Positions 34,744-50,695 of a stretch of DNA of 51,285 bases are shown here, one piece after another. Every line of letters begins with the position of its first letter. Position 1 is the first letter of the stretch. The notes below the pieces were generated by a model, which was not told the origin of the DNA, did no database searches, and worked only from the letters and a program-made list of their open reading frames with translations. Origin of the DNA: a phage. Location: the sequence record PZ445413.1; one strand, 5' to 3'. The position numbers and the translations under genes are program-made.

Positions 34744-34771
34744 GGGGTTGGCATTTGCCAGCCCCTTTTTT
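34744..34771 (+). terminator. rho-independent terminator before lysis cassette
   Basis: ggggttggc attt gccagcccc followed by TTTTTT. Confidence 0.6.
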
Positions 34772-35946: not shown

Positions 35947-35960
35947 CGGCTCCTTTTTTT
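35938..35960. terminator. bidirectional terminator after spanin gene
   Basis: ggagcc taac ggctcc plus T-run; A-rich on the other side. Confidence 0.55.
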
Positions 35961-36186: not shown

Positions 36187-36223
36187 GGTGATTTCCTTTT
36201 GTGTGTTTCGTTTCGATGAAACA

Positions 36224-36266
36224 AATATACCAGATACAAGATCGGGTTTTTTAACAAAAAGTGCTA
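36224..36266 (-). repeat. box cassette (minus strand)
   Basis: minus ATAGCACTTTTTGTTAAAAAAC ... TATATT; box carries stop TAG of 36264-36458. Confidence 0.45.
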
Positions 36267-36458
36267 TTCAAGCAATCTGACGTTAACCAATATCACGCCA
36301 TCACCATCACATAAATTATGCTCCTTGTCGCCAAACGCTTTCATGTCGGCTCGCATTATGGTTAACAGCGCATAAATCAGATCATCATGTGAGATTGAAT
36401 TTACGGCGCAATGCTTCAATATCTCGTCGATTAGTTTTTGAGCAGAATAATTCTTCAT
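36264..36458 (-). CDS. hypothetical protein (overlaps next gene)
   Basis: 64 aa; stop TAG inside box; 74-nt out-of-frame overlap with 36385-36777; weak RBS. Confidence 0.3.
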   Translation of the reverse strand: MKNYSAQKLIDEILKHCAVNSISHDDLIYALLTIMRADMKAFGDKEHNLCDGDGVILVNVRLLE

Positions 36459-36777
36459 CGCTTAACTCATTCAGGTGAAATAGATCGTAAATGTATTTAT
36501 TGCTCTCACCTTCCAGACTATACAACTCAAACCGGAAAGGCCGTTTTTTCGAGCCGTAGCACGTCACCACGCCGTTTTTTATATCAAGGTATCCCAATGT
36601 AGCCATTCGCGGGATAAACTCAAGAGAAACGCTTGAGGCGAATTTACGCGTCGTCATGTTTGCGGCTCTCGCGAGCCGCTCGCACTCTTTGTGCTGAAAA
36701 ACAAACTTTGCCAAATGTTGACGGTTAAACCAATCGTAACTTTCACAAAATTTATACAGATCTAAGAGAAACATCAT
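36385..36777 (-). CDS. hypothetical protein
   Basis: 130 aa; start 4 nt after stop of upstream ATPase gene. Confidence 0.4.
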   Translation of the reverse strand: MMFLLDLYKFCESYDWFNRQHLAKFVFQHKECERLARAANMTTRKFASSVSLEFIPRMATLGYLDIKNGVVTCYGSKKRPFRFELYSLEGESNKYIYDLFHLNELSDEELFCSKTNRRDIEALRRKFNLT

Positions 36778-36781
36778 TAAG

Positions 36782-38362
36782 TCACCCCAATAAAGCAGGA
36801 TTCACAAAGACGCGCCCATTGATTACGCAAACATAGTTTCGATCTTCAAGCATTGGCAGTAAATTTTCCTCTATGCGCTTCATAATGCCAGCTTGCCCCA
36901 GGAATGGTTTAACCTTGCGTGCCGATTCGTAAATTGCGCGAACACTTAAGATCCCTTTGTTGGCTTTGCCGTGGCGCGTGATAATGTCGATTAACTTGCT
37001 CATTTCGGCATCATCGCCAGCGTGACCGGAAGCATTCGCCGCACTGATGTATGTTTTGCTCAACTCCTGGAACATGATCAAAGCCTCTTGCATAGTTTCC
37101 AGTTCAATTTCTCTCGACTTCTGAGGCGATCCGCTTTCATTGAACCAGTTGCGGATTACATGCAGAACTGATGCAATGCGAATAACTTGCTTATCCATTT
37201 TACCCAGCGCACCGCGCAACATGGTATGTGAATATTTTCCGCCGTCTGCAAGATCTGGCTCCATTTCCTGGCGAGCGCGGTTTAAGCATTTCATTGCGGA
37301 TTTGCTGATCTTCAATGAAACTTCCGCCTCAGTCATGATGTTATGAATAAGTTGATAATATTGCGCTTTCAGTGTCGGATCTACTGGCTCAAAGGTTGAA
37401 TCACCATCATCATCAATGAACGTGCGGCGACCTAAAAACGATTCTTCACGAACCAACAAGAAACGCTCACTAACACCGATACCGCGTGAACCAGCTTCCA
37501 TAATGCCGCTTATCGTTTCATCCTGAGCAATTACGCTCATGCAACCCAGCGCTTTAAAACTCATGTTGTTTTCTGCATTGGCACGAGCAATAGAAACGTG
37601 TCCCGCATCCCATGCTTTTAACACCAATTCGCTGTTAGTTTTGCGCTCGCTGTTGGCGTAGGTCAATCCCAATAAGCTGTTAATACTGGTTGCTTCATCC
37701 GAGATAACCGCAAAATTTCCCTGGCGGTTGTTGATTTTCGCCAAACCTTCTGGCGTGGTGTCGGAAACAGGAAAAACAACATCACACAGTTTTTGCAATT
37801 TCTCCTCTAATTCTTCCTTTTCCTCATACAGTGCCGCCATATCAGCGCCTGATCTCTCGCTTTTCATTTCTTTAGCAAGGCCAGCGAGTTTAGCCATAAT
37901 CTTTTTGCGCTCTTTCTTGCGTTGTTCGTTGATTCGCTCAACCTCGCAAACCATAGGAGCAATCGCCAGGCTGTTGATCGCAGATTTACCAGTTGACGGC
38001 GGCTGGCTTGTTACAACATACAGCGCCGTTGGCTGATCGGTTCCATGATAATCAACAGTAAAACGACCGAGCATTGCAGCAGACACGCAACCTACAAAGT
38101 GCATGTAGGCAGATGAAGCCGGAAACTGAACTGATTTTGCAATATTGCTTGAAAGTTTTCCTACAACGTCAATATCGTTTCCCAACGAAATTACAGGGTA
38201 GCGGTCATTGCCTGAATTAACATCTTGAACATCGCCCCAAAAGCTGGATGATTGGCGGTAGCCGTTTGCGTTGATTGCAACACGCAGAGGCGAAACGCCC
38301 AGGCTTTCGGCAGTGTCGATAATATCTTTTGGTGATAAGCGTTTTTGTTCAAAATCGTACAT
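36782..38362 (-). CDS. P-loop NTPase (putative replication-associated ATPase)
   Basis: Start at Met with strong RBS aaaggaga; Walker A PPSTGKS and Walker B VISDE. Confidence 0.5.
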   Translation of the reverse strand: MYDFEQKRLSPKDIIDTAESLGVSPLRVAINANGYRQSSSFWGDVQDVNSGNDRYPVISLGNDIDVVGKLSSNIAKSVQFPASSAYMHFVGCVSAAMLGRFTVDYHGTDQPTALYVVTSQPPSTGKSAINSLAIAPMVCEVERINEQRKKERKKIMAKLAGLAKEMKSERSGADMAALYEEKEELEEKLQKLCDVVFPVSDTTPEGLAKINNRQGNFAVISDEATSINSLLGLTYANSERKTNSELVLKAWDAGHVSIARANAENNMSFKALGCMSVIAQDETISGIMEAGSRGIGVSERFLLVREESFLGRRTFIDDDGDSTFEPVDPTLKAQYYQLIHNIMTEAEVSLKISKSAMKCLNRARQEMEPDLADGGKYSHTMLRGALGKMDKQVIRIASVLHVIRNWFNESGSPQKSREIELETMQEALIMFQELSKTYISAANASGHAGDDAEMSKLIDIITRHGKANKGILSVRAIYESARKVKPFLGQAGIMKRIEENLLPMLEDRNYVCVINGRVFVNPALLG

Positions 38363-38378
38363 CTGAAAATCTCCTTTC

Positions 38379-38435
38379 TTGTTGCCGCTAATTATAACGG
38401 CAACAATACTACCCTGTTTTAACAAAAAGTGCTAT
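38379..38435 (-). repeat. box cassette with TATAAT in hairpin loop (minus strand)
   Basis: minus ATAGCACTTTTTGTTAAAAC then ttgttgccg-TTATAATTAG-cggcaacaa then aaaggaga-ATG. Confidence 0.55.
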
Positions 38436-38680
38436 TTGATCCGCTCTATGCGAGCCATTAGTTTTCCGGTCAGTGAGCTAACGCATTCAGCCGTAACGCT
38501 ATCTATTCGCTCAAAAGGTAACGATTGGCGGTAATTGTGTCCGATCTGCCATTTGCCGCCAACAACCTTAATTGGCTTGATAATGTCGCCAACTTTCATG
38601 CAGGAAGTTTCGCCATCTATGACTTTATAGCGCCATTCCTTTTGCACGTCGCCAACGCCCAAATAACGCTTTTCACTCAT
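38432..38680 (-). CDS. small protein, paralog-family member
   Basis: 82 aa; ATGA overlap with upstream gene; stop TAG inside box. Confidence 0.4.
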   Translation of the reverse strand: MSEKRYLGVGDVQKEWRYKVIDGETSCMKVGDIIKPIKVVGGKWQIGHNYRQSLPFERIDSVTAECVSSLTGKLMARIERIK

Positions 38681-39096
38681 GAATATTTCGCCTCAAACAG
38701 ATAAGCACCACCAGCGGCAGAGAATCCGACCTCCTCCCGGTAAAGCGTCAAGCGGTCGCCGTCCTCGTCGAATACATAACCAGCAACGCCACCCAGCACG
38801 CGCCCTTGCTCGATCTGGTAGCGCTTGCCAGCTTTGAAGGTTTTCTTGATCTGCATTGAGTGATTTACCCAAGTGCATTTGATCGTTTTGGTTTTTAACT
38901 CAACGAATCTTGCAGCGATGCAACCTTTTGATACGCAAGCAATCTCGCCGCAAACACCAACGGCCAGGAAAATTTTTTCCTTGCCTTTGCCGATAGAAAT
39001 ATTGCCTTCATCATCAACGCGTGCTGAATACAGGCGATTTTCAATGAAAGATTCGGTGATGGTTGATGTGCATTTGAGTTTGATTGTCTTAGCCAT
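38677..39096 (-). CDS. paralog-family protein with internal tandem duplication
   Basis: 139 aa; two copies of K-x-K-C...G-K-x-Y module; RBS aaaggagc. Confidence 0.45.
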   Translation of the reverse strand: MAKTIKLKCTSTITESFIENRLYSARVDDEGNISIGKGKEKIFLAVGVCGEIACVSKGCIAARFVELKTKTIKCTWVNHSMQIKKTFKAGKRYQIEQGRVLGGVAGYVFDEDGDRLTLYREEVGFSAAGGAYLFEAKYS

Positions 39097-39124
39097 TTTG
39101 ATTTGCTCCTTTCGTTTGGTGTGT

Positions 39125-39172
39125 TTGCATTATGCCAGGCTTTTACACCTGGCTTTTAACAAAAAGTGCTAT
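39125..39172 (-). repeat. box cassette (minus strand)
   Basis: minus ATAGCACTTTTTGTTAAAAGCC; hairpin gccagg/cctggc; CATAAT; RBS aaaggagc. Confidence 0.5.
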
Positions 39173-39864
39173 TTTGAATTAAAGATCATGACGGCGCGCG
39201 CAAAGCCGCGAGGGGTAAGTGAGCGCAATTGCTTTGTCCTGGCAGACTTTCCGCCTAAATACTTCCACGCCCAAAAGAAACCGATATTGATCGGGCCTGG
39301 TACTTTATCAGGCATTACAAAACCGTTACCGCACCAAATGCAAGTTTTCTTTGTGTACCCGTCGAAAGCTGGCATTTTTGGATGATAAGGCTTTTCATCC
39401 TCTCGCATGTATCCGCCGTATTCGAACGGGTGAAAGTAATGGTTTGGTTTGCGCCATTTAGTTGACAGAAGCCCCACGGGATTTTCCACCATCCAGGGGC
39501 AACCATAGCGATTGCCTAACGCCTCAACCAGTTTTGCATTACTGACAGCCAGATCAACAGCGTCCTCGTTGCGCTCATGCTTGCGCCCACTATGCGCTAA
39601 CTCAGTGCATGACGGGAAAGCAAAAATAATGTCAGGCTTGCCGATTACCTTTTGCTGGTTCCCTGATAGGTAAGCCACCGAGCCAGCCGGATCAAACGTT
39701 TCATCAATCCAGGCATTCACATAATGCAGGTTTTCATGCTGCATCTTGATTTCGTATTCGCCGTGATCCGCTGTATCAGCATTGAAACAGAAAACAGTGT
39801 GACCAGCTTTCGCCCAATCCAGGCCCATAATGCCGGAGCCGTCAAACAGTGACCAAATAACCAT
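39169..39864 (-). CDS. DNA (cytosine-5) methyltransferase-like protein (divergent)
   Basis: 231 aa; motif I-like LFDGSGIMG; motif IV-like FPSCTELAHSGRK (PSC in place of PCQ); motif VI-like MVENPVG; RBS gagggtga; stop TAG inside box. Confidence 0.4.
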   Translation of the reverse strand: MVIWSLFDGSGIMGLDWAKAGHTVFCFNADTADHGEYEIKMQHENLHYVNAWIDETFDPAGSVAYLSGNQQKVIGKPDIIFAFPSCTELAHSGRKHERNEDAVDLAVSNAKLVEALGNRYGCPWMVENPVGLLSTKWRKPNHYFHPFEYGGYMREDEKPYHPKMPAFDGYTKKTCIWCGNGFVMPDKVPGPINIGFFWAWKYLGGKSARTKQLRSLTPRGFARAVMIFNSK

Positions 39865-39873
39865 AATTCACCC

Positions 39874-40098
39874 TCAGAATGGAAAACAACGCTTGCATGA
39901 TGGATCGAAATTGCAGCCGCAATCGTTAATGATTGTTGTCGGATCTGCAAGAATAGCGCCACATTCTTGATCCATGTCCATTGCACCCAACGCATCATCA
40001 AGGCTGATTAATTTATACGCAACCTCTAACGCAGCCTCTTTGTTTAGTCCAGCCGCCTCCGCTTCATGCAGTCGCGCAAAGAAACCATCTTGAGCCAT
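39874..40098 (-). CDS. hypothetical protein
   Basis: 74 aa; RBS gaggtga. Confidence 0.4.
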   Translation of the reverse strand: MAQDGFFARLHEAEAAGLNKEAALEVAYKLISLDDALGAMDMDQECGAILADPTTIINDCGCNFDPSCKRCFPF

Positions 40099-40160
40099 TT
40101 AATTTCACCTCGCAATTATTGTTGGGCGGCGCAAAATCCGCCCTTTGAACCAATCAGGAA

Positions 40161-40382
40161 TCAGAACCATTTTTCAATCAAGAAAGACAGATCATCAATC
40201 ATCGCGTAAGCATCGCTTTCCGTCATGCGGCGAATCTTTCCGCCTGGGTGCTCGCCTACCGCGTAGCCTGTTTTGATTTTGGTAATCGTCAACTGATGGA
40301 AACCAGAAGCGCGATCCATTTTGAGCACCGCTTTACCGTTTGCTTTGACCAGCTTCATGATTGATTCAGTTTTGATTTTCAT
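40161..40382 (-). CDS. small hypothetical protein
   Basis: 73 aa; preceded on minus strand by box + hairpin containing TGgTATAAT + RBS. Confidence 0.4.
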   Translation of the reverse strand: MKIKTESIMKLVKANGKAVLKMDRASGFHQLTITKIKTGYAVGEHPGGKIRRMTESDAYAMIDDLSFLIEKWF

Positions 40383-40411
40383 TGCTTTATTTCCTTGTTT
40401 CGTTTGTTGAT

Positions 40412-40460
40412 GCGCCCATTATACCAGGGCGCGTGATTTCGTTTTAACAAAAAGTGCTAT
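40412..40460 (-). repeat. box cassette with extended -10 in hairpin loop (minus strand)
   Basis: minus ATAGCACTTTTTGTTAAAAC then gcgccc-TGGTATAAT-gggcgc. Confidence 0.55.
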
Positions 40461-40461
40461 T

Positions 40462-40659
40462 TCAAAGATATGTGATTTTATCTTCCGTTACCCACTCGCA
40501 GCGCTGACGCTCTACAACCTTTTTGTAATTCCGGTTGATGTGATGCGTGTTGTAGTCCTCAAACGCCTGGATTGCGTTAACCAGGTTGTTAGCGGTTGCA
40601 ATTAGCGTTTTGTCGTTCCTGTCAATCCTGCTTACAAGATACGCAGCATATCTAATCAT
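40462..40659 (-). CDS. hypothetical protein
   Basis: 65 aa; ATGA overlap with upstream gene. Confidence 0.35.
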   Translation of the reverse strand: MIRYAAYLVSRIDRNDKTLIATANNLVNAIQAFEDYNTHHINRNYKKVVERQRCEWVTEDKITYL

Positions 40660-40889
40660 TTAGGGAGCCTTATTTCGTTGTACTCGCAAAACTCGATCAC
40701 GTAAGGGCACTCTTTCGGCTCCTCCTGGCCTTTCATCACCTCGCAACCCTGATTGAATAGGTTGCAGTGTTGGCACAGCCAGCCGCCGCAATGCTCCTCA
40801 ACTATCGACAACCCATTGCACCGACCGCCGCCGAACCTATGCGGGAAATCGTAAGCGGTGCAGGTGCATGTTACCTGGTGGCGTGCCAT
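40656..40889 (-). CDS. cysteine-rich protein (putative zinc-binding)
   Basis: Start at internal Met overlapping upstream stop (taATG); ~13 Cys in 77 aa. Confidence 0.4.
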   Translation of the reverse strand: MARHQVTCTCTAYDFPHRFGGGRCNGLSIVEEHCGGWLCQHCNLFNQGCEVMKGQEEPKECPYVIEFCEYNEIRLPK

Positions 40890-41083
40890 TAACCAATCTC
40901 CAGAGTTGATGGCGTAACGCCGGACTCGATAAGCCTCCACATTTCATTGCATTTATCGCGCCCATGCTCCTTAATAAATTTTGGCATATCAAGACGGCTG
41001 TTTATGCGATCCATTTGGTTACAGCTTCCGCTCATTTGCACAAGTCGGAAAAACTCGCTGAATTGCTCTTTTGTAAATGTCAT
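40889..41083 (-). CDS. hypothetical protein
   Basis: 64 aa; RBS gaggag. Confidence 0.4.
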   Translation of the reverse strand: MTFTKEQFSEFFRLVQMSGSCNQMDRINSRLDMPKFIKEHGRDKCNEMWRLIESGVTPSTLEIG

Positions 41084-41286
41084 TTTGCGATCTCCTCAAA
41101 GTGATAATTGTCAATTCCAGCACCGCGAATTACATGATCGTATCGGAACAACCACAATTCCAACCCGTTATCGTCGATGATATGCGGATCATTTTCCCAG
41201 CGACCGCGCAATCTGTACTCTTTGCCCTCAGTGAATCGCCAAACGTTCAAATTATCGTTTTCGGCTTTGATGCAGCGTAATTTCAT
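41080..41286 (-). CDS. small protein, paralog-family member
   Basis: 68 aa; MKLRCIKAEN...EGKEYRLRG motif; overlaps neighbours. Confidence 0.4.
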   Translation of the reverse strand: MKLRCIKAENDNLNVWRFTEGKEYRLRGRWENDPHIIDDNGLELWLFRYDHVIRGAGIDNYHFEEIAK

Positions 41287-41507
41287 TATTCACCTTCCAC
41301 AGTTTCAAACACGGTATTGAATGCCAGAAGTTTAAATTTCTTCCCTGGCTCAACCACTGCGATATTCCAGGTAATGCCGCCGTGATATGCAACCATATCC
41401 TCAATATCGACGGTGATTTGTGCGCCTTTCTTGAATAACCCTTTCTCGTGGGTAGCGTCACGTTCGGTAACTACTGTTTCGAATTGGGTTTGTTGTTCAA
41501 AGTTCAT
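41286..41507 (-). CDS. hypothetical protein
   Basis: Start at Met with leader caaccaatcaggagaatcaaacg-ATG; 73 aa. Confidence 0.4.
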   Translation of the reverse strand: MNFEQQTQFETVVTERDATHEKGLFKKGAQITVDIEDMVAYHGGITWNIAVVEPGKKFKLLAFNTVFETVEGE

Positions 41508-41532
41508 CGTTTGATTCTCCTGATTGGTTGAT

Positions 41533-41582
41533 GGGGCTATTATGCCAACTAACCCCGATCCAGTTTTAACAAAAAGTGCTAT
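41533..41582 (-). repeat. box cassette (minus strand)
   Basis: minus ATAGCACTTTTTGTTAAAAC; gggg...CATAAT...cccc; leader caaccaatcaggag. Confidence 0.5.
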
Positions 41583-41857
41583 CAAGCCTTTTTCATTTCA
41601 TCGCTGATGAATTTCAGCACCTGGCGCAAGAAAACCTCGTTGCTAATAGTCGCTGGCAATTCCTCTTTAATTTCTTGCGGGAGGTAAACGTTGCCATGCC
41701 AGGTTAAGTTGTCATAGTTGATGCTGTAGGAGCAAAGCCATTCGCAATCGTTATCAGCTTCCCAAATGCACAGTTGCAGACCGTCGCCGAAATCCTCAAC
41801 AGTCAGATCCAGACCGCGTTTCTTGGCAAAGTTGAAAGTAGTTTTGCTGATGTTCAT
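41582..41857 (-). CDS. hypothetical protein (first gene of leftward early operon)
   Basis: 91 aa; leader cccaatcaggagcaagcgagc-ATG; box cassette upstream. Confidence 0.45.
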   Translation of the reverse strand: MNISKTTFNFAKKRGLDLTVEDFGDGLQLCIWEADNDCEWLCSYSINYDNLTWHGNVYLPQEIKEELPATISNEVFLRQVLKFISDEMKKA

Positions 41858-41898
41858 GCTCGCTTGCTCCTGATTGGGTATCTCGTTTCGATGAAGTA

Positions 41899-41942
41899 AC
41901 TATAGCAAATCAGATCAGATCGCTTTTAACAAAAAGTGCTAT
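41899..41942 (-). promoter_or_regulatory. box-type promoter cassette for leftward early operon
   Basis: minus-strand ATAGCACTTTTTGTTAAAAG, 19 nt, TATAGT; no upstream gene, so the box is not merely a stop-codon context. Confidence 0.45.
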
Positions 41943-42257
41943 TGATGGATTGTGTATAAAACAACCGCTTTGCAGCACCATTGCAAAATCTGAAATGATA
42001 GCCGCATATCGTTGCACATCATGCAAGATAGTGATTGTTGCAGTTTAGACAATAATTAGTGTGAATTTTTACTGATTGTGTGGGGAATGGTGAAACCTGG
42101 TTCGCGAGTGTCAAGTTTTCGCTCTCGCCACGGCGCCTTGTCTCCTCTTGTTCAGGGGTGTTCACAGATTTCTCCGCATTGTTTCCGCGCCGTTTTTCGG
42201 TGTTGAGTAAACAAAATAAACACTATAAATCCTCTATAATACATTGAAATTAAAGTA

Positions 42258-42283
42258 TATTTATTTATATATATCTATTTGTT
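42258..42283. repeat. 26-bp AT-rich repeat, copy 2
   Basis: TATTTATTTATATATATCTATTTGTT identical to 20785-20810; in early divergent control region. Confidence 0.6.
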
Positions 42284-42516
42284 GTTTTTATTGTTCACAC
42301 TGTTTATGGTGGATATGGGATAGTGTCTGGATTGATGTATAGTGATATATGGGTATGCGCTCGCCTGGGTGGGGTGGCTTGTGCGCATCTATATATATTT
42401 AATCCTCCGCAACTCGTTAACAGCGTTAACAGAAAAAAAGACAGCCTGTTTTCAATGACTTAGGCGCTGTTTTGTCTTTTTGTGCGGTTGTAGTCGTCTG
42501 TTAAACAAAATAAACA

Positions 42517-42544
42517 TTGACACGTCGCGCGGCCTGATTATAAT
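42517..42544 (+). promoter_or_regulatory. consensus sigma70 promoter for rightward early operon
   Basis: TTGACA - 16 nt - TATAAT about 30 nt upstream of ATG 42576. Confidence 0.6.
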
Positions 42545-42575
42545 GGCTCCCGAACCAATCAGAGGAGGAATCACG

Positions 42576-43034
42576 ATGGAAGAAAAAACCACGAAAGATT
42601 ATTGCAATTGGTTGCGAGCGCTGGGAAAGCGGCTGGCAGACGGTGAGATTGAGGAGTATCGCCTATCGCTTGATATTCTCGCCAGCAACCACAACGGCGA
42701 TGATTACTACAAGATCACGAAAAGCGTTTCGTATTCCAGGACAATTATCAACCGCGTGCCGGAAGTGAAAGCGGCTGGCACAATCAGCATTAAGGTTGAG
42801 GAAACGGACGACGAGCGGTTTTACGTGTTCCGCCTGAATCGCGATGCAAAGCGTAAGGTGCTGACCAGCGAAGATGTGAGCGCAATCGAACAAAAGGCAG
42901 TGGCAAAAGCGATGCGCGGTTTGCTGCATACCATGCCGAACATTGCAGATTTGAGCGGCGAGAAAGCAGAGGGCGCGCTTATTATGGCGCAGCGTTACCA
43001 GGCAATTATTGGAAATATGATCAAAGGAGAATAA
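42576..43034 (+). CDS. hypothetical protein (first gene of rightward early operon)
   Basis: ATG 42576 after leader aaccaatcagaggagg and consensus promoter TTGACA-16-TATAAT. Confidence 0.5.
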   Translation: MEEKTTKDYCNWLRALGKRLADGEIEEYRLSLDILASNHNGDDYYKITKSVSYSRTIINRVPEVKAAGTISIKVEETDDERFYVFRLNRDAKRKVLTSEDVSAIEQKAVAKAMRGLLHTMPNIADLSGEKAEGALIMAQRYQAIIGNMIKGE

Positions 43035-43037
43035 ACC

Positions 43038-43289
43038 ATGAACCACGCAGACATTCGCAAAGTAGCAGAGCAGATCGTTGAAATCCTGGGCGAACACCGC
43101 CCTAACTCTAAATGCTGGGATCTGATTATCAAAGATGTTCATCACCTGCAACAGCCCCGCGTTCGCCTGGTGTCCGGTGATTTGAATATTGAATATATTG
43201 TCGGATCGCCAGCGCTTGAAACGGCAATGAATGCGCTTATGCGTGAGGGTGAGAAATTCACAGTTGAACCAGTGGAGGGCAAGAAATGA
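43038..43289 (+). CDS. hypothetical protein
   Basis: 83 aa; RBS aaaggaga. Confidence 0.45.
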   Translation: MNHADIRKVAEQIVEILGEHRPNSKCWDLIIKDVHHLQQPRVRLVSGDLNIEYIVGSPALETAMNALMREGEKFTVEPVEGKK

Positions 43290-43606
43290 ACAAATTCAAA
43301 GTAGCGTTAGGCGCAATCCTGGTTGTTGCTGGCGTGGTGATGCTGACTGGTTGCGATAGCGACACCCGCACGCCGGAACATGCACGCATTAGAATGCAGG
43401 TTGAAACAGGAGCAGATCACGACCGCGCGAGTGTGCGCAAGTTAACTGAATTTGCTGATGGCCTGGCGTACAACGACAAGCGCGGGATTTACATCATCAC
43501 CGATAAGCAGACGGGCAAAGAGTACATCGGCGTTTCTGGTGTTGGTATCACAGAAACCGGATCGCACGCTTGCGGCAAGGGTTGCACACGCCAGGACGAG
43601 CGATAA
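43286..43606 (+). CDS. lipoprotein (superinfection exclusion candidate)
   Basis: 106 aa; signal peptide with lipobox LTGC. Confidence 0.5.
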   Translation: MNKFKVALGAILVVAGVVMLTGCDSDTRTPEHARIRMQVETGADHDRASVRKLTEFADGLAYNDKRGIYIITDKQTGKEYIGVSGVGITETGSHACGKGCTRQDER

Positions 43607-43689
43607 TGAAAGAGCCTGGACAATTTGCAATAGGAATTTTTATCTGGCTTGCGGTCATATTCTGGATCGCGTGGATTATCGCAAGATAG
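43606..43689 (+). CDS. small hydrophobic peptide (27 aa, single TM)
   Basis: taATG overlap with lipoprotein gene; MKEPGQFAIGIFIWLAVIFWIAWIIAR; stop TAG inside box; not in ORF track. Confidence 0.3.
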   Translation: MKEPGQFAIGIFIWLAVIFWIAWIIAR

Positions 43690-43735
43690 CACTTTTTGTT
43701 AAAACTCGATTCAGGGGTTGCGATATAGTAACCCC
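43686..43735 (+). repeat. box cassette with TATAGT in hairpin loop
   Basis: ATAGCACTTTTTGTTAAAAC; ggggtt-gcgaTATAGTa-acccc; leader aacgagga. Confidence 0.55.
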
Positions 43736-43760
43736 ATCGAAACGAAACGAGGATTTAGCA

Positions 43761-43919
43761 ATGACCACTTTGATTACCTGGGAACACGAGCAAAGCCAGC
43801 CAGTAACCCGCGAGTTTGAAACACTGAGCCAGGCGTATTTGCTGGCGGCAAACGGCGGTTACTACAAGGCGCAAGTGATTGATGAAATGGGGGTTGTTGT
43901 TTATGAGTTTAAAGCGTGA
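43761..43919 (+). CDS. small hypothetical protein (52 aa)
   Basis: Conserved leader aacgagga-N8-ATG after box + hairpin cassette; not in ORF track. Confidence 0.4.
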   Translation: MTTLITWEHEQSQPVTREFETLSQAYLLAANGGYYKAQVIDEMGVVVYEFKA

Positions 43920-44100
43920 TGTTGTGTACGAGTCCCGCTATGGGACTCGACAATATAAATGGGATGGCTTGCACGTATGGACGCGCGGTTTTCCTGGTGA
44001 GATCTGGAGGCTGGCGGCTGGGTGGCCTCAACCGCAAATGAGCAAGCGGGATCTTGAATACTACGTCAACAAGGGCGAATTTGTGGAGGCTGAACAATGA
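43903..44100 (+). CDS. hypothetical protein
   Basis: 65 aa; in-frame Met within ORF-track 43879-44100; overlaps previous gene. Confidence 0.35.
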   Translation: MSLKRDVVYESRYGTRQYKWDGLHVWTRGFPGEIWRLAAGWPQPQMSKRDLEYYVNKGEFVEAEQ

Positions 44101-44246
44101 TTCACGTCCTAATCCTGGTGATTTCCACCATGCAAGGCGAGGCGGTTACAACGCAGGAATTCCACAGCAAAGCGCGTTGCTTGGAGGCTCGCGAGGTGGT
44201 TATGAAACACGCATACAATGCAAGGGCGTTTTGCTTACTGAAATAG
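44097..44246 (+). CDS. small hypothetical protein (49 aa)
   Basis: ATGA overlap with previous stop; stop TAG inside box; not in ORF track. Confidence 0.3.
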   Translation: MIHVLILVISTMQGEAVTTQEFHSKARCLEAREVVMKHAYNARAFCLLK

Positions 44247-44286
44247 CACTTTTTGTTAAAACATCGCCGGAGCAATCCGGCATAAT
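44243..44286 (+). repeat. box cassette
   Basis: ATAGCACTTTTTGTTAAAAC; hairpin gccgg agcaat ccggc; CATAAT; leader aaacgagga. Confidence 0.55.
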
Positions 44287-44317
44287 ACACACATCGACAA
44301 CAAACGAGGAAATAACC

Positions 44318-44497
44318 ATGAAAAAATTAGGTTTAGGTTTGGGCTTTGGATTCGTCGCTTTTTGGATTGCTGCTGTTATCGGCTGGATCATGAATATCGT
44401 TGCAATGTTTGGCGAGATTTCTACTAACGAGCTAATCATTCGCGCGGTCGGCGCTGTTATCGCCCCTGCTGGTGCAATCATGGGCTGGTTCATGTAA
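44318..44497 (+). CDS. small membrane protein (59 aa, two hydrophobic segments)
   Basis: Leader aaacgagga-N8-ATG; Gly/Ala/Ile-rich hydrophobic sequence. Confidence 0.45.
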   Translation: MKKLGLGLGFGFVAFWIAAVIGWIMNIVAMFGEISTNELIIRAVGAVIAPAGAIMGWFM

Positions 44498-44546
44498 TAG
44501 CACGAAATGTTAAGCGGTCATGTGTGCTGATTGGTATCATGACCGC
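44497..44546 (+). repeat. box cassette (variant)
   Basis: ATAGCACGAAATGTTAAG; long hairpin gcggtcatg...catgaccgc with TATCAT in loop. Confidence 0.45.
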
Positions 44547-44569
44547 ATCAACCAACGAGAGGAAAAACA

Positions 44570-44836
44570 ATGCACGTTAAATGCCGCAATGTTAATGATC
44601 GTTATTATCTGACTGACGGAAAGATTTACAAGGTTATCGCAAAGCAAGGTGATGCTTCAAAGTTTGATGGCGTAGTGGGTTATGGGTCATTTGAAATAAT
44701 CTGCGACGATGGCGATCCGATTTACTGCCTGTTTAATCATTGCGCCCATGCAGATTGGCAGATTGTTAGCGAAAAGCGCAACCCGTTCGCATTCTGGAAT
44801 AAACTGAAATCAGGAGCTTTGCACAATGCAATTTGA
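44570..44836 (+). CDS. small protein, paralog-family member
   Basis: 88 aa; MHVKCRNVNDRYYLTDGKIYKV motif; leader aacgagagg. Confidence 0.45.
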   Translation: MHVKCRNVNDRYYLTDGKIYKVIAKQGDASKFDGVVGYGSFEIICDDGDPIYCLFNHCAHADWQIVSEKRNPFAFWNKLKSGALHNAI

Positions 44837-45365
44837 GATTTGGGATCAAACCTACATTATGCCGTCACGCCACAAAGGGATCGTGATTGTTGATTACGAT
44901 GGCACGTTGAGCGATGGGAAACACCGCTTGCACCTGCTACCGACAAAGGATTTGCACCTAACTGAATCATGGAGCGAATTTAACCGCGCAGCCGTTAACG
45001 ATTTACCAATCAGTAGCACAATCGCCATCATTAACGGTCTTTGGGTGTCAGGCTTTGCCGTAATAATCCTAACAGGACGCAGTGACGAGGTAATGAAAGA
45101 ATCAGTCGATTGGCTCACTGACAACGGCGTGCATTACGATCACATTATCATGCGCCGGAGCTTTGACAACCGCAAAGACACGATCATCAAAGAGGAGGTT
45201 TTGCGCGCTATCGGCCTGGAAAACATTGTGTGCGCCTTTGACGACTCGCCAACTGTTATTAAGCATATGCGCGGCCTGGGGATCACAACTTACGCGGTCA
45301 CTGACTACGGCGAGAATATACACAATCACCTGAAATCTCACGGCGTGGAGGAGTTGCAGAAATGA
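44826..45365 (+). CDS. HAD-superfamily hydrolase (nucleotide/polynucleotide phosphatase-like)
   Basis: 179 aa; HAD motif I DYDGT (IVIVDYDGTLSDGK). Confidence 0.5.
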   Translation: MQFEIWDQTYIMPSRHKGIVIVDYDGTLSDGKHRLHLLPTKDLHLTESWSEFNRAAVNDLPISSTIAIINGLWVSGFAVIILTGRSDEVMKESVDWLTDNGVHYDHIIMRRSFDNRKDTIIKEEVLRAIGLENIVCAFDDSPTVIKHMRGLGITTYAVTDYGENIHNHLKSHGVEELQK

Positions 45366-45541
45366 TGCAATCAACAGTGATTAAATTCCTGGGTAGTGAA
45401 TGCAAGGAAGTCAACGAGTGTTTCACCGCTGGCAAGCGTTATCATGCCAATGTGTCAAGCGCTGGCAATTACTTTGTGTACGACGACCACGGCGACACCT
45501 GGGCCATTGATCCAGATGATGATGATTTTGCGGTTGAATAG
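45362..45541 (+). CDS. small protein, paralog-family member (59 aa)
   Basis: ATGA overlap; ECKEVNECFTAGKRYHANV motif; acidic C-terminus; stop TAG inside box. Confidence 0.35.
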   Translation: MMQSTVIKFLGSECKEVNECFTAGKRYHANVSSAGNYFVYDDHGDTWAIDPDDDDFAVE

Positions 45542-45587
45542 CACGAATTGCTAAAACAGATTAACGGGGTTGCGTTATAGTAGCCCC
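45538..45587 (+). repeat. box cassette (variant)
   Basis: ATAGCACGAATTGCTAAAAC; gggg...TATAGT...cccc. Confidence 0.5.
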
Positions 45588-45613
45588 ACACCAAACGAGA
45601 GAAGGAAAACAAA

Positions 45614-45892
45614 ATGAAATTAGCACGCAACGCGGTTTATGCGATCGCCACCGAATTCGATGGAGCAACAAATTTTGTACACATCAATAAGAACGGAAAA
45701 ATTAACCCGTTCTTTCTTGAGAAACACGGCTTTGATGTTCACGGTGAATTGCGAAATCATCCAGAAGGATTGCATGAACACTGGAGGGGTGCGTTTAAAG
45801 CATATAAGTGCATAATGGTTCAAAGCCATGTAACAAAAGCAAGTGACGTTGATTTCAAGCGCTGCCGAAAGTTTGCACGCAACTATAAGTAA
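45614..45892 (+). CDS. hypothetical protein
   Basis: 92 aa; leader aaacgagagaagga. Confidence 0.45.
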   Translation: MKLARNAVYAIATEFDGATNFVHINKNGKINPFFLEKHGFDVHGELRNHPEGLHEHWRGAFKAYKCIMVQSHVTKASDVDFKRCRKFARNYK

Positions 45893-45955
45893 GACTTTCC
45901 GCAAGGCCGTTTGCGAGCGGCCTTATTGAAAGCAACCAACAAAGGAGAAATCAAG

Positions 45956-46534
45956 ATGGCTAAAATCATCATTCTGAATGCACCGCCAGGCGCTGGAAAA
46001 GACACAATCGGATCGCTGGTTAAGGATGAATCACCAGTGCCGTTGCGACTATTGAGCTTCAAACAACCGATGTTTGAGATCGCACTTGCCATGCTTGGCC
46101 CTGGTAAGTATCGCGAATTCTTGACGGCGTACAATGACCGCGAGCAGAAAGAAAAGCCGCATGACTTCCTGAATGGTATGAGTTGCCGCCAGTTCATGAT
46201 CTGGATTAGCGAGGAAGTAATCAAGCCGCGTTTCGGCAATGGGTATTTCGGCAAGCGGTTTGCAGAGGAAGCGGAACGCAGCGACATTCCGGTTATTTGC
46301 ACTGATGGCGGCTTTACCGATGAAGTGATCGAACTAATCAGAGGTGGTCATGAGGTGAAAGTTTGCCGCCTCCATCGCGAGGGGTTCACCTTCCAGGGTG
46401 ATAGCCGCGATTACATCCGAATCAGTAGCGCGCGCGACAACGTAAGTGGTTATTGCGAATACGACTATTACCTAATGGATAAAAACCCAATGGTGACAGT
46501 TGAGGAAATCATTCGCGATCACCTGGCAAAATAG
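45956..46534 (+). CDS. P-loop nucleotide kinase (dNMP kinase-like)
   Basis: RBS aaaggaga before ATG 45956; Walker A NAPPGAGKDT near N-terminus; ~190 aa. Confidence 0.45.
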   Translation: MAKIIILNAPPGAGKDTIGSLVKDESPVPLRLLSFKQPMFEIALAMLGPGKYREFLTAYNDREQKEKPHDFLNGMSCRQFMIWISEEVIKPRFGNGYFGKRFAEEAERSDIPVICTDGGFTDEVIELIRGGHEVKVCRLHREGFTFQGDSRDYIRISSARDNVSGYCEYDYYLMDKNPMVTVEEIIRDHLAK

Positions 46535-46574
46535 CACGAAATGTTAAAAGCGGGGCAGTTAGTCCCGCTATAAT
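46531..46574 (+). repeat. box cassette
   Basis: ATAGCACGAAATGTTAAAAG; hairpin gcggg...cccgc; TATAAT 46569-46574. Confidence 0.55.
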
Positions 46575-46607
46575 GCACCCATACCAACCAAACAAGGAAA
46601 CGACAAA

Positions 46608-47006
46608 ATGAATAGCTCAAAACGCCTCGACACTCACGACGCTGGTTATGTGATGAAGTGCATTTCTTCCAACTCTCACAATTTCATTGTCGGAAAGCAT
46701 TACCCTACTGAGCGTTGCACGATCACCGATTATAACCAGGGATGCCCAGATATTAACGGCGGCTTTGCACTAAACTACCAGCGCGGCAAGTATTACGGCG
46801 TAGAGGGTGCAACCATGATCGCAAGATTCATTATGGTAAAAGACAACAAAGGCCGTTACACTAAGCGCGACACATGCCGCAAACTGAAAGAAAAGCAGGA
46901 TTTCCGCCGTATGCGTCGATATATCCGCCAGATGTTGAAAACCAGCGAGCGCGGGAGCTATGAGTTTAAGATCCTGAATAGCCTAGCTCGCCGCTTAGGG
47001 AAATAA
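46608..47006 (+). CDS. paralog-family protein with basic C-terminal extension
   Basis: 132 aa; VMKCISSNSHNFIVGKHY motif; K/R-rich C-terminus. Confidence 0.45.
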   Translation: MNSSKRLDTHDAGYVMKCISSNSHNFIVGKHYPTERCTITDYNQGCPDINGGFALNYQRGKYYGVEGATMIARFIMVKDNKGRYTKRDTCRKLKEKQDFRRMRRYIRQMLKTSERGSYEFKILNSLARRLGK

Positions 47007-47096
47007 CATGCACGCACAACCACCATTTGATTTTCACAAGGCCATGATTATTGGCCTTACTATCCTAACTGTAATGTATGGCATAAGGGGTGTTTT

Positions 47097-47348
47097 ATGG
47101 TTCGCAATGCACTAAAACGACTGTTTAAACCGGAGTACCGCGTAATCATCGAAATGAGCGAAAACGGCGCGGTGTACATCCAACGCAAAAACATTTTCGG
47201 GCGTAAGTGGCACTATGTTAGCGACGTATTAGGCGCTATTGAGTTTGAATCGGTAATGAGCGCGTTTATGTTCATTGATGTTATGCACGAATACCGCGAG
47301 TATGAAGTAAGCATGTTTATCCGGTTTGATGGTGAGGAATTCGAATAA
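47097..47348 (+). CDS. hypothetical protein
   Basis: 83 aa; RBS aaggggtg. Confidence 0.45.
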   Translation: MVRNALKRLFKPEYRVIIEMSENGAVYIQRKNIFGRKWHYVSDVLGAIEFESVMSAFMFIDVMHEYREYEVSMFIRFDGEEFE

Positions 47349-47536
47349 TGTGGAATTGGAAAAAGCTGTTGTTAACGTTGGCTATCGCGTTGATTGGTAT
47401 CGTGATCATGGAGTCAGGTTTTACAAACCACTTAGGCGCGGCGGTGCTTGCCCTGGCCTACTCCATACCCGCTTACTATGACGGCAAAAAGGCCGGAGGG
47501 CGTGAAGTGTTCGAATTAATGAAGCGCCGAAAATAG
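47348..47536 (+). CDS. small membrane protein (62 aa)
   Basis: taATG overlap; two hydrophobic helices; stop TAG inside box. Confidence 0.45.
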   Translation: MWNWKKLLLTLAIALIGIVIMESGFTNHLGAAVLALAYSIPAYYDGKKAGGREVFELMKRRK

Positions 47537-47582
47537 CACGAATTGCTAAAACTAAATCAGGAGCATTTGTTATAGTGCTCCT
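47533..47582 (+). repeat. box cassette
   Basis: ATAGCACGAATTGCTAAAAC; hairpin aggagca-tttgtTATAG-tgctcct. Confidence 0.5.
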
Positions 47583-47618
47583 CGTTGAGTTAAGCAACCA
47601 ATCAGAGGAGAAATTAAA

Positions 47619-47897
47619 ATGGCAACCATTCGTAAGCACCTGGTAAACGCATTCGAAAACGTAGGCAAAGCGTATGGCTGGGATGATGGATTGAAAACGC
47701 CATACACGGCACGCCGCCAGGGGTTCAACTCTTTGAGAGAATGGGCGCGTTGCATGGCTGCAAACTATATGCCTGAAAATCATATTCTCATGCCGGATTC
47801 ACTGCTAGAAATGATCGAAGATGCACAGCGCGCAGGTATCCCGCTGACACAACACGATTTCGACGCATACGCAGAGGAGGAAGTAAACGCATGGTAA
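47619..47897 (+). CDS. hypothetical protein
   Basis: 92 aa; leader aaccaatcagaggag-N8-ATG. Confidence 0.45.
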   Translation: MATIRKHLVNAFENVGKAYGWDDGLKTPYTARRQGFNSLREWARCMAANYMPENHILMPDSLLEMIEDAQRAGIPLTQHDFDAYAEEEVNAW

Positions 47898-48103
47898 GCG
47901 ACAAGCCGGAAGCGGTTAAAATCCGCACTGATTATGACGGTTCGCCGTGGATTCAGGCCGGAAAGGTTTACGACGCAACGCTTGAGAAGTCGGGCAAGTT
48001 TGCAGGGTGTTACAAAGCTGTTGGGGAATTAGGTTCCCCATTTTACACAAGACTGAAAAGTTCAGTTCACTTAATTGGTAAAGATTGGGAGATTGTAGAA
48101 TGA
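47891..48103 (+). CDS. small protein, paralog-family member
   Basis: 70 aa; AVKIRTDYDGSPWIQAGKVYDAT motif. Confidence 0.4.
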   Translation: MVSDKPEAVKIRTDYDGSPWIQAGKVYDATLEKSGKFAGCYKAVGELGSPFYTRLKSSVHLIGKDWEIVE

Positions 48104-48714
48104 AATATGTAAAACCAACAACGGGCGGTTTCGGTTACACTGCTGGCAAACTATATCCGATCCTAATGACCTATGAGGGCGGTCAGATGGTGATAAGAAA
48201 TGACAAAGGTGTTACGCAAATTATTCGCGGCGACGGCAAGCCATCACTACGATTAGAGCGAGGCGGAAAGTTTGAGGTTGTGGATATTCCAGAACCTGGA
48301 GAGGCTCAAGAGTACGCAGTTGAAACAGCAAAAAAGACAAGCGAGGCTCTACGCGAGCACGTAAAAGTGATTGTGAAAGATTCTATTGTTAGCGCGGCGT
48401 TACCTGGCGGCGTGCTTCATAAGGCAGTAAACGAAAGCGATCACTTGCGCGCGGCGCGACAAATCGCCGTAAACGCAACAGAGCTTGCAAGCGAGGTTGC
48501 ATTAGGCCGATATGATGCAAGTCTCTATATGCGACTTGAAAAGGCAGAGCGTGAGGCGGCGCAGCACAAAGCGGATTGCATCAAAGCGGAGGCGATTGTT
48601 GATCAGCTTTATGACATATTCCCGCAGGTGCGCAATCCAGAGCAATTGGTTGCAGCGGTGCGCAGTTCGAAAATCTTTGCTGATGCGTTTTTGGAACTGC
48701 AAAAGGTTAAATAG
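48100..48714 (+). CDS. paralog-family N-terminal module fused to helical C-terminal domain
   Basis: ATG 48100 overlapping previous stop; MKYVKPTTGGFGYTAGKLYPIL; stop TAG inside box. Confidence 0.45.
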   Translation: MKYVKPTTGGFGYTAGKLYPILMTYEGGQMVIRNDKGVTQIIRGDGKPSLRLERGGKFEVVDIPEPGEAQEYAVETAKKTSEALREHVKVIVKDSIVSAALPGGVLHKAVNESDHLRAARQIAVNATELASEVALGRYDASLYMRLEKAEREAAQHKADCIKAEAIVDQLYDIFPQVRNPEQLVAAVRSSKIFADAFLELQKVK

Positions 48715-48760
48715 CACTTTTTGTTAAAACTTCCGCGAGGACATTTGTTAAAGTGTCCTC
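48711..48760 (+). repeat. box cassette
   Basis: ATAGCACTTTTTGTTAAAAC; hairpin gaggaca-tttgttaaag-tgtcctc. Confidence 0.5.
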
Positions 48761-48786
48761 ATTGAAGCGAAACAGAGGAAAACGCA

Positions 48787-48999
48787 ATGAAAATCAAAAT
48801 CACCAAAATCGACACTATCAACGGCGACGGCTCAATCACTCTTGAGCAATGCGGGTTGGTTATCGGGGATGTTCTGGAGGTTGACGGGCATTTCAGCGAC
48901 GGATCTTATTGTGTGATTGCGCCGCGTAACAGCGAGTTTATCAAAGCTGGCGACAATATCAGTGTTAACCATGATGAATGCGAGGTTGTAGAAAAATGA
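48787..48999 (+). CDS. small protein, paralog-family member
   Basis: 70 aa; MKIKITKIDTINGDGS motif. Confidence 0.4.
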   Translation: MKIKITKIDTINGDGSITLEQCGLVIGDVLEVDGHFSDGSYCVIAPRNSEFIKAGDNISVNHDECEVVEK

Positions 49000-49328
49000 T
49001 TCAGATTAACCTATCAGAAGAACAAGCGAAATCATTGTTGCGCGGCCTGGGCTGGCGAATGGGTAGCGGTAGCGAGGCGGTTGTAAACATCAAAGAGGAA
49101 GTAGCAAAAGAGCTTTTTGCACAGCTTGAGCATAAACTGATGCCAACCTCAACAAGCGCGGCGGAGTTGGCAGTGTGGCGGCATGAAAACGGCCTTAATG
49201 AAATGGATGTTGAGAAGTGGAAGCGTAAAAACTGTAAAGAGGTTGTAAGCGTTCCAATGGATGTTGTTAGAAAAAACCAACTTCCTTACTATCCGGCTTT
49301 TGAAGTTATCATGAATATAGGTGGTTAA
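48996..49328 (+). CDS. hypothetical protein
   Basis: ATGA overlap with previous stop; 110 aa. Confidence 0.4.
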   Translation: MIQINLSEEQAKSLLRGLGWRMGSGSEAVVNIKEEVAKELFAQLEHKLMPTSTSAAELAVWRHENGLNEMDVEKWKRKNCKEVVSVPMDVVRKNQLPYYPAFEVIMNIGG

Positions 49329-49329
49329 A

Positions 49330-49668
49330 ATGATTTACGTTCACACTTACGGGATCGGGAAGTTTGCCAGCAAGCAGATCCGAAACATTCACGACACGCA
49401 TGATGAAGCGGAAGCGCAACGGCGCGTTTTGGGTGGAGTGGTTCAGGCGTTTGAATCAGTGGAAAACTTAGAAAGCGAATGGATGGAGCGCGAGCACATA
49501 AAGGATCTGATTGTTGATGAGGTGTCATGCTTGATTGATGATCTCACAACTGATGCGCCAGGGTCGCCGAGAAACTATGAGCCAGGCTCAACGCAATGGG
49601 ATTGTTGGAAGGTCAAAACGCTAAGCAACATCCGTGATATTCTGGACGGAAAATTTAACGAAATTTGA
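49330..49668 (+). CDS. hypothetical protein
   Basis: RBS aggtgg 6 nt before ATG 49330; 112 aa. Confidence 0.4.
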   Translation: MIYVHTYGIGKFASKQIRNIHDTHDEAEAQRRVLGGVVQAFESVENLESEWMEREHIKDLIVDEVSCLIDDLTTDAPGSPRNYEPGSTQWDCWKVKTLSNIRDILDGKFNEI

Positions 49669-49727
49669 TAGTGTTTAAAGCGCTTCAAACGCATTCTAAG
49701 AGTCGCAAATTTTAAGAGGGCAATTAC

Positions 49728-49958
49728 ATGTTTGGATTATCAGAAGGGCACTGGAACGTAGTTAAACGCGCCGCTCGCGGTCTTAATGACGCAATCAGTG
49801 AACTACCTAAAGGCGACCGCAAGAATGAAAAGATTGTGATCGATATAATCACCAAACATCATGCGCCAATTGCGCCACTGATTGACCGTTACAAATTCGT
49901 TTGGACGGCTGGATATTTGGCGGGGCGTGTTGGTTCAAAAGTAGCCGATTACGAGTAA
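49728..49958 (+). CDS. hypothetical protein
   Basis: 76 aa ORF. Confidence 0.4.
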   Translation: MFGLSEGHWNVVKRAARGLNDAISELPKGDRKNEKIVIDIITKHHAPIAPLIDRYKFVWTAGYLAGRVGSKVADYE

Positions 49959-50128
49959 CAGCATTGACGCACCGCCGCTGATTGGTTAACATTGACGGCG
50001 TAAACAAAAGAGGCTCTATAGAGCAACGCGCAGCGCGATAGCTGCAAAACCCAAATCGGGCAGGGAGAGCGCAACGCGCCCCGATGCCAGCGGGAACCGT
50101 AACCCGCAACCATTCAGGAGAATCAACG

Positions 50129-50296
50129 ATGAATCGACACCAAACAGAAGAAATCAAAGTAACAATCACGGTTGAGCGTAACGGCGTAAAGACTCGCTAC
50201 AAAAAACGATTCAACAAAGGCGAGGCGATGTTAGGCCGGATCGGTGATTTCATGGTGAAGTTGCAAGAGGATAAGCCGGATGGTGTACAAGGTTAA
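50129..50296 (+). CDS. small hypothetical protein (55 aa)
   Basis: Leader aaccattcaggagaatcaacg-ATG. Confidence 0.4.
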   Translation: MNRHQTEEIKVTITVERNGVKTRYKKRFNKGEAMLGRIGDFMVKLQEDKPDGVQG

Positions 50297-50462
50297 ACTT
50301 ACTATCAGGCGCATGGGGCGAAATTGCAGATCATGCAAACAGGAATTTGAATGCGAGGTTGCAGCATTTGACGAACATCACGCCGTCAACCTTGCAAAGC
50401 GCTTATCAGGTGCAGATCCAGAAACGCACCAATTTTCAATCAACTATGTAAGAGGTATTTAA
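50280..50462 (+). CDS. small Cys-containing protein (CxxC...C.C)
   Basis: 60 aa; overlaps previous gene. Confidence 0.35.
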   Translation: MVYKVKLTIRRMGRNCRSCKQEFECEVAAFDEHHAVNLAKRLSGADPETHQFSINYVRGI

Positions 50463-50464
50463 TC

Positions 50465-50695
50465 ATGTTAATGTTTTCAATTGGTTTTCTCGTCGCCGTT
50501 ATCCTGATGATGTTTGCTGGCTCACTGGCTACAAAATACGCAGTTAAAAAAGGCTGGTACGCCTCCGCAATGTGGAGCGATAAAGACAAAGTTTGGAAAG
50601 TGCGCGGCTCATACCTGGCGATTTCCGGCAAGATTTTTACAGGCATTCAAACCGAAAAGCTAACAGGCGTTAAATCGGTCAAGTATATGGATTGA
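50465..50695 (+). CDS. small membrane protein
   Basis: 76 aa; N-terminal TM helix; followed by terminator. Confidence 0.45.
   Translation: MLMFSIGFLVAVILMMFAGSLATKYAVKKGWYASAMWSDKDKVWKVRGSYLAISGKIFTGIQTEKLTGVKSVKYMD

Follow-up and report, generated by a model that had tools for sequence, protein, structure and literature searches.

A paralogous family of predicted SH3-like small domains in the genome of a T1-like coliphage

T1-like phages are coliphages that serve as models and can also be a nuisance, and the small genes in their non-structural operons are mostly unannotated. Sequence record PZ445413.1 (51,285 bp; hereafter the window) is the complete genome of one such phage, a T1-like siphophage that infects Escherichia coli (Drexlerviridae, Tempevirinae). 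Its non-structural genes form two clusters, one leftward (35959-42165) and one rightward (42480-50695), which diverge from one intergenic region. An initial annotation of this genome had proposed that a set of its small open reading frames (ORFs) begin with a similar N-terminal module, K-x-x-C followed by G-K-x-Y, as if one small fold were being re-used with diverse parts. Is this module real, what kind of domain does it belong to, and what might the proteins that carry it do? Here we show that most of the listed ORFs do belong to a paralogous family. All of them are present in the sequence where they had been placed. The window holds five firm, three probable and one possible copy of the domain, distributed over six to eight genes. 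A relative used for comparison, Escherichia phage vB_EcoS_W011D, is 97.6% identical across 82% of bases 38000-49500, and several cassettes within this interval are replaced relative to it.

Family alignments were made for 43 small window genes by local iterative hidden Markov model (HMM) search, with 113 related loci fetched for family building, and were then compared all against all with hhalign (903 pairs). The 12 highest-scoring pairs are all between listed ORFs, and the top pair between non-listed families reaches a probability of 14.8%. At the level of single domains, core member pairs have probabilities of 54-99%, with E values down to 6e-17 and alignments of 40-58 columns. An HMM seeded with ORF 45362 picks up residues 69-128 of ORF 38677 with E = 5e-30. 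Against the superfamily profile, the five firm members score 98-99%, and the best non-listed family 3.2%. A scan of the superfamily HMM over 465 six-frame ORFs of the window gave zero matches among the ~455 that were not listed. The resemblance also stood out in plain pairwise alignment. The 11 claimed modules have a mean Smith-Waterman score of 27.9, compared with 21.9 ± 0.58 for shuffled sequences (z = 10.4); none of the 300 shuffles equalled it, and neither did any of 300 sets of 11 small proteins drawn at random from the non-listed ones of this genome (maximum 22.7).

These results bear directly on a chance explanation, by which the ORFs would share only a common β-hairpin motif (G-K-x-Y ... 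DD-x-G) and no ancestor. The motif does yield spurious multi-stretch matches to β-propeller repeat proteins, and the resemblance of ORFs 38432 and 48787 to the others is at noise level. Core alignments of the length given above, hhalign probabilities of up to 98.8%, the recruitment of one family by an HMM built from another and the empty control scans leave chance a barely credible account of the family as a whole. It is refuted for 34550, 41080, 45362, the C-terminal domain of 38677 (38677C) and the N-terminal domain of 48100 (48100N), and stands for 38432 and 48787. We consider the homology and the fold of the family to be very probable.

The homologous unit extends over 45-58 aligned columns and is therefore a complete small domain of ~50-60 amino acids, not an N-terminal module of ~25. 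Four core residues are near-invariant, namely G and Y in G-K-x-Y, G in DD-x-G and one C-terminal F. Loop lengths differ around them. The Cys of K-x-x-C is frequent, yet missing from 45362, 48100 and 47891, and so does not define the family. In the short members 34550, 41080 and 45362, what had been described as diverging C-termini is the remainder of the same domain. A full-library HMM search returned 117 hits, many of them large proteins with 4-17 short matching stretches; we rejected these as artefacts of β-propeller repeats because the same profile matches designed 'Cake' propellers in the PDB. Pfam and cluster look-ups for ten of the full-library hits yielded no names.

Three of the five firm copies are standalone domains. 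The hub of the family is g45362 (59 amino acids, net charge about -8; 45362-45541, plus strand), a gene that W011D is without. In the leftward cluster, g41080 (68 amino acids; 41080-41286, minus strand) aligns to 45362 with 73.8% probability, to 48100N with 63.6% and to the superfamily profile with 98.3%. The third, g34550 (55 amino acids; 34550-34717, plus strand), is a member of Pfam family DUF7244 (96.1 bits, E = 1.2e-27, gathering threshold 27 bits) and aligns to 45362 and 41080 with 84.7% and 82.8%, respectively. The initial annotation had assigned all members to the two early regions; g34550 lies apart from both, adjoining the lysis cassette. Its start overlaps the stop codon of a gene for a 373-amino-acid DNA repair exonuclease (TAATG, 34548-34552), and a T-rich terminator with a 10-bp stem (34743-34766) stands between it and the holin gene (34848). 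In this genome, g34550 therefore closes the exonuclease unit as its final gene.

The remaining two firm copies belong to larger proteins. The C-terminal domain of g38677 (residues 68-139; 38680-38895, minus strand) is the most conserved copy and pairs with 45362 at 98.8%; its mean pairwise identity among 60 homologs is 82%, compared with 58% for the N-terminal half. The gene, whose product has an isoelectric point of 9.1, sits between a methyltransferase and a helicase gene, likewise in phages T1 and Bas11, and its position next to the helicase gene is maintained in T1, Bas11 and W011D. In g48100 (48100-48714; 204 amino acids), residues 1-62 form the domain (48100-48285, plus strand; 94.7% to 45362, 98.1% to the superfamily profile), and a helical or coiled-coil part follows.

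Three further copies are probable. For ORF 38677, two tandem copies had been claimed; the C-terminal half is firm, and the N-terminal half (38677N; residues 1-67; 38896-39096, minus strand) is probably a diverged second copy. Residues 3-43 of this half were found by the superfamily HMM with E = 7e-4 and 1.5e-4 at iterations 4-5, and it aligns to the superfamily profile with 95%, a score that is partly circular because both 38677N and the N-terminal domain of 46608 (46608N) were recruited into the profile at iterations 4-5. Its independent pairwise hhalign probabilities are only 14-27%. The same holds for 46608N (residues 14-80; 46647-46847, plus strand), with E = 4e-4 at iteration 5, a partly circular 74-78% to the superfamily profile and 14-24% in pairwise comparisons; the motif is clear in its orthologs (LRCIKI..F.VGKVYEA...V.D..G). 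The gene (46608-47006) encodes 132 amino acids with a net charge of about +16, and a basic C-terminal tail follows the domain. The third probable member, g47891 (70 amino acids; 47891-48103, plus strand), reaches 80.5% (E = 1.3e-5) against a superfamily profile built without it, an independent result, and has a per-member Smith-Waterman z of 4.5.

The N-terminal domain of g44570 (44570N; residues 1-66; 44570-44767, plus strand) is a possible copy, followed by a conserved tail, NPFAFWNKLKSGAL, in a gene for 88 amino acids (44570-44836). A homolog search with g44570 found only three close homologs, and what its family alignment shares is the C-terminal tail, behind differing N-terminal domains; full-length hhalign is misleading for this reason, and the N-terminal domain alone was used for comparisons instead. 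It aligns to 47891 with 62.7% over 59 columns and to 34550 with 28.9%, phrog_4927 is matched by both 44570 (E = 1.3e-5) and 45362 (3.4e-3), and the Smith-Waterman z is 5.6. Despite this support, the superfamily profile gives 44570N no more than 6%. For two listed ORFs, membership is unsupported. One is g38432 (82 amino acids; 38432-38680, minus strand), with hhalign probabilities of at most 3.3% to everything, a Smith-Waterman z of 1.3 and a family of its own, phrog_12725. The other is g48787 (70 amino acids; 48787-48999, plus strand), with at most 7.5%, z = 2.3, its own family phrog_5684 and a weak match to Pfam DUF5666 (E = 0.013).

A common small β fold had been suggested for the family, and structure prediction gave a confident model of one member. 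The AlphaFold2 model of 45362, computed from an 82-sequence alignment that spans subfamilies, has a predicted local distance difference test score (pLDDT) of 92.7 and is a five-stranded SH3-like barrel (strands 3-9, 26-31, 37-40, 46-49 and 56-58) with a short helix in the first (β1-β2) loop. It is a small five-stranded barrel that superposes on solved SH3 domains. The top Foldseek matches in the PDB are all SH3, Tudor or BPL-SH3 domains, none of them significant, and the closest solved structure to the predicted model is Gp54 of phage Bas11. In the BFVD, Foldseek matches are small uncharacterised proteins of many enterobacterial phages and a 236-amino-acid 'kinase-phosphatase' of phage tonnikala. 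Sequence-profile searches of the PDB returned nothing significant; a type II anti-CRISPR protein (9X91) came up at E = 0.2, which is noise level, and was rejected. For the full two-domain g38677 protein (60 homologs), the AlphaFold2 model is all-β with a pLDDT of 50.7 and unusable, probably owing to an over-uniform alignment, and the claim of a tandem copy therefore rests on profiles only. Homology to 45362 suggests an SH3-like fold for the other paralogs.

Beyond the window, the domain occurs in at least 17 subfamilies in the 113 related loci. Phage T1 has four genes with it and Bas11 at least four. When 33 subfamily representatives were compared with Pfam and PHROG, the subfamilies matched ~20 PHROGs, nearly all of unknown function. 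One of these, phrog_14592, is annotated as 'virion structural protein' and was matched by 5 of the 33 representatives (best E = 1.1e-21); if this annotation is correct, virions may contain some of the members.

The domain is found in many architectures, which support the idea of a re-used fold. Among the relatives it is standalone, in tandem (the 38677 type), single or in tandem with a C-terminal transmembrane helix (212 amino acids; T1 ST68), joined to a coiled coil with a conserved C-terminal end (the 48100 type) or followed by a basic tail (the 46608 type). In locus L004 (10582-10953, plus strand), two CxxCxGxG motifs, as in a DnaJ-like zinc ribbon, precede the SH3-like domain. The C-terminal part of the 48100 type (48286-48714, plus strand, in the window) is joined in relatives to at least three N-terminal SH3-like subfamilies and ends in a conserved motif, ..LREILRVPEGENI.THAKVVR.LAD.L..LQK (for example, L109 838-1656 and L060 5924-6481). 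The g44570 tail RNPFAFWNKLKSGALHNAI (44768-44836, plus strand) is kept across relatives (for example, L001 11732-12007), where an unrelated sequence takes the place of the ~65-residue N-terminal domain before it; the W011D ortholog is itself such a case. Unlike 38677, the other members are patchy in distribution, with swaps of genes or domains even relative to W011D. Net charge ranges from -8 (45362) to +16 (46608). The proposal of one fold joined to diverse parts thus survives for the coiled coil, basic tail, transmembrane helix, zinc ribbon, tandem and phosphatase-linked forms, and fails for the short standalone members, as described above.

The phosphatase-linked form concerns 45362, whose start overlaps the stop codon of the upstream polynucleotide kinase (PNK) gene (ATGA). 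In loci L007 and L008, the PNK phosphatase and the domain form one 242-amino-acid ORF (L007 9974-10702), with 69% identity to the window PNK and 38% to 45362. A conserved functional pair of PNK and SH3-like domain was considered and rejected as a general rule because adjacency or fusion is found in 5 of 79 loci. The gene annotated as polynucleotide kinase in the window (44826-45365, plus strand) encodes a HAD-type phosphatase only, with a DYDGT motif; a P-loop kinase has a gene of its own (45953-46534, plus strand) 600 nt downstream. Together the two look like a split version of T4 Pnkp.

What might these proteins do? On balance we favour an expanded SH3-like family of binding or adaptor modules. 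A single SH3-like β-barrel domain of ~50-60 amino acids, distantly related to Pfam DUF7244 of the SH3 clan, would have undergone a lineage-specific expansion in Drexlerviridae, with copies placed in non-structural operons behind repeated phage promoter-like elements. The barrel would serve as a compact module for binding. The paralogs, which differ from one another in loops, charge and C-terminal extension, would during infection each engage a different partner, be it a protein or a nucleic acid and of host or phage origin. Most of them would be accessory factors that the phage can do without, of the kind that acts in host takeover or counter-defence, and the highly conserved, helicase-linked 38677 copy probably has a core role. 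The parts of this proposal differ in strength. An adaptor or effector function is suggested tentatively by the sequences, and host takeover or counter-defence is a guess. Gp54 offers the sole indirect support for this guess and the sole experimental precedent for binding, as a structural neighbour that is a dispensable small barrel and binds a host immunity protein. A preprint on transposon-based gene essentiality does not include T1-like phages among those it covers.

Several observations weigh against this proposal. Few small folds are commoner than the SH3-like barrel, which makes 'binding module' a weak deduction from fold, and the functional role of the sequence-family members is read from their sequences. 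The confident model is that of 45362, a single member. The 38677 C-terminal domain, at its mean identity of 82%, is far too conserved for an arms-race factor. PNK adjacency or fusion is confined to few loci, and the 'virion structural protein' PHROG, which five members match, does not fit the role of an early effector. A bolder extension of the proposal makes the barrel a phage 'binder scaffold' with diversified loops and tails, each protein neutralising or hijacking a different host factor, antiphage defence included, with the same proteins perhaps being ligands for sensors such as CapRel and Gp54(Bas11) a far-diverged member; we regard this as speculative and rather doubtful.

Two other functional explanations draw on the neighbouring genes. 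The copies may be nucleic-acid-binding modules of the KOW, Tudor, Sm or RecD-SH3-like kind that tether the helicase, exonuclease, PNK phosphatase and kinase to DNA or RNA. The coupling of 34550 to the exonuclease gene, the position of 38677 between methyltransferase and helicase and the association of 45362 with PNK, fusion included, all point this way, as do the strongly basic tail of g46608, the high isoelectric point of g38677 and structural matches to RecD and KOW domains. The PNK-fused type, 45362, is however very acidic and 41080 mildly so, PNK adjacency is rare, no known nucleic-acid-binding Pfam family was matched, and gene adjacency counts for little where phage operons are so tightly packed; we judge this explanation unlikely for the family.

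Still less probable is an accessory role in lysis, in which the domain would be an SH3b-type cell-wall-binding module that assists the signal-anchor-release (SAR) endolysin. Eremina et al. (2026, Int J Mol Sci, PMC13164509) put forward such a role for DUF7244, which they described in phage KanT1 as the 'standalone SH3' of T1-like phages; in Gram-positive endolysins, SH3b domains commonly serve to bind the cell wall (PMC13164509). In the window, g34550 is DUF7244, with the exonuclease gene on one side of it and the holin gene on the other. It is, however, translationally coupled to the exonuclease and separated from the holin by the terminator, and its sequence has no signal peptide, transmembrane segment or fusion to a muralytic enzyme. 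Among the window members none has a hydrophobic N-terminal segment or is fused to the endolysin. The distant paralogs lie in other non-structural operons, beside helicase, PNK and kinase genes. Folded proteins are not known to pass through the lesions made by pinholins, and access of a cytoplasmic protein to the peptidoglycan would accordingly have to await lysis. Pfam SH3b families (SH3_3, SH3_5 and similar) gave no match at E ≤ 1 with the ten ORFs or at E ≤ 0.1 with the 33 representatives. A lysis-accessory role could apply to 34550 alone.

Two further features of the non-structural regions were observed. Eleven copies of a near-identical element, ATAGCACTTTTTGTTAAAAC, lie upstream of non-structural gene units, each followed after ~17 nt by a TATAAT-like hexamer. 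The 15-nt cores are at 29195, 43689, 44246 and 48714 on the plus strand and at 20641, 36250, 38418, 39155, 40443, 41565 and 41925 on the minus strand. From its sequence, the element is probably the phage's own conserved σ70-type promoter with an upstream motif; translated, it gives a recurring 'ALFVK' in spurious ORFs. In the operon of 41080, a Cys-rich ORF of 77 amino acids (40656-40889, minus strand; CTCTAYDF..GGGRCNG..CGGWLCQHCNLFNQGCE) probably encodes a small zinc-binding protein.

Gp54(Bas11), the sole small Drexlerviridae barrel with a known host interaction, is the nearest known system in structure. It triggers the CapRel(SJ46) toxin-antitoxin immunity system (PDB 9AXB and 9ERV; Zhang et al., Nature 2024, PMC11578894), which it binds by β-sheet augmentation with a dissociation constant of 800 nM. 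The protein has ~66 amino acids, is non-essential and of unknown function; its authors describe a six-stranded SH3-like barrel that may inhibit another defence system, and even close homologs fail to activate CapRel(SJ46) (PMC11578894). Given this specificity, nothing about CapRel can be deduced for the window proteins. The Bas11 genome has the same layout as the window, where the Gp54 homolog is g41286 (73 amino acids; 41286-41507, minus strand), a gene that the initial annotation had not listed. It matches 9AXB with E = 1.1e-9 (phmmer) and phrog_7421 with 8e-40, and lies immediately upstream of the family member 41080, with a promoter-like element upstream of both (41565-41579). Gp54 resembles the family in its small size and in its location, which is the corresponding leftward operon in a Tempevirinae phage. 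It differs in its barrel, which has six strands in a rare topology, compared with five strands and a short helix in the 45362 model. The Gp54 family scores 0.8% against the superfamily profile and the PDB profile searches miss 9AXB; the link is therefore structural only, and g41286 is a structural neighbour, not a sequence member. Set beside Gp54, the family members become candidates for partner and anti-defence screens.

DUF7244 (PF23896), placed in the SH3 clan by InterPro, is the nearest in sequence. Its gene lies between the exonuclease and holin genes in 188 of 522 Drexlerviridae genomes and was described as present exclusively near the lysis module, in one copy per genome, with a cell-wall or endolysin role proposed (PMC13164509). 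By score, size and position between exonuclease and holin, g34550 is a true member. The other firm paralogs are detectably homologous (hhalign 56-85%), yet 45362 reaches 14.1 bits, below the 27-bit threshold, and the other listed ORFs do not match; these paralogs are in other operons, several with extra parts, and because of this location we treat them as relatives of DUF7244, not as members. Seven of the 33 representatives match DUF7244 at E ≤ 0.1. DUF6501, a Pfam family of unknown function, is matched by two of the 33 (best E = 2.2e-6) and by window proteins only at E = 0.1; in one metagenomic protein (P0167, 289 amino acids), a match to DUF6501 and one to DUF7244 stand in tandem. Canonical SH3, Tudor and KOW small β-barrels (SCOP b.34) have no significant sequence similarity to the window family, and the short helix in the β1-β2 loop of the 45362 model sets it apart from canonical SH3 domains. 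The fold, DUF7244 and its single copy per genome were thus already known; a multi-copy expansion is not reported in that study (PMC13164509), and what is new is that the family has expanded by paralogy and is spread across non-structural operons, together with the fusions and the structural kinship to Gp54. Paralogs in several operons qualify the statement that this gene is confined to the lysis module; their distance from it weakens the proposed cell-wall role. The comparison provides a fold-level annotation for ~20 PHROG families and for six to eight genes per genome (at least four in T1 and Bas11).

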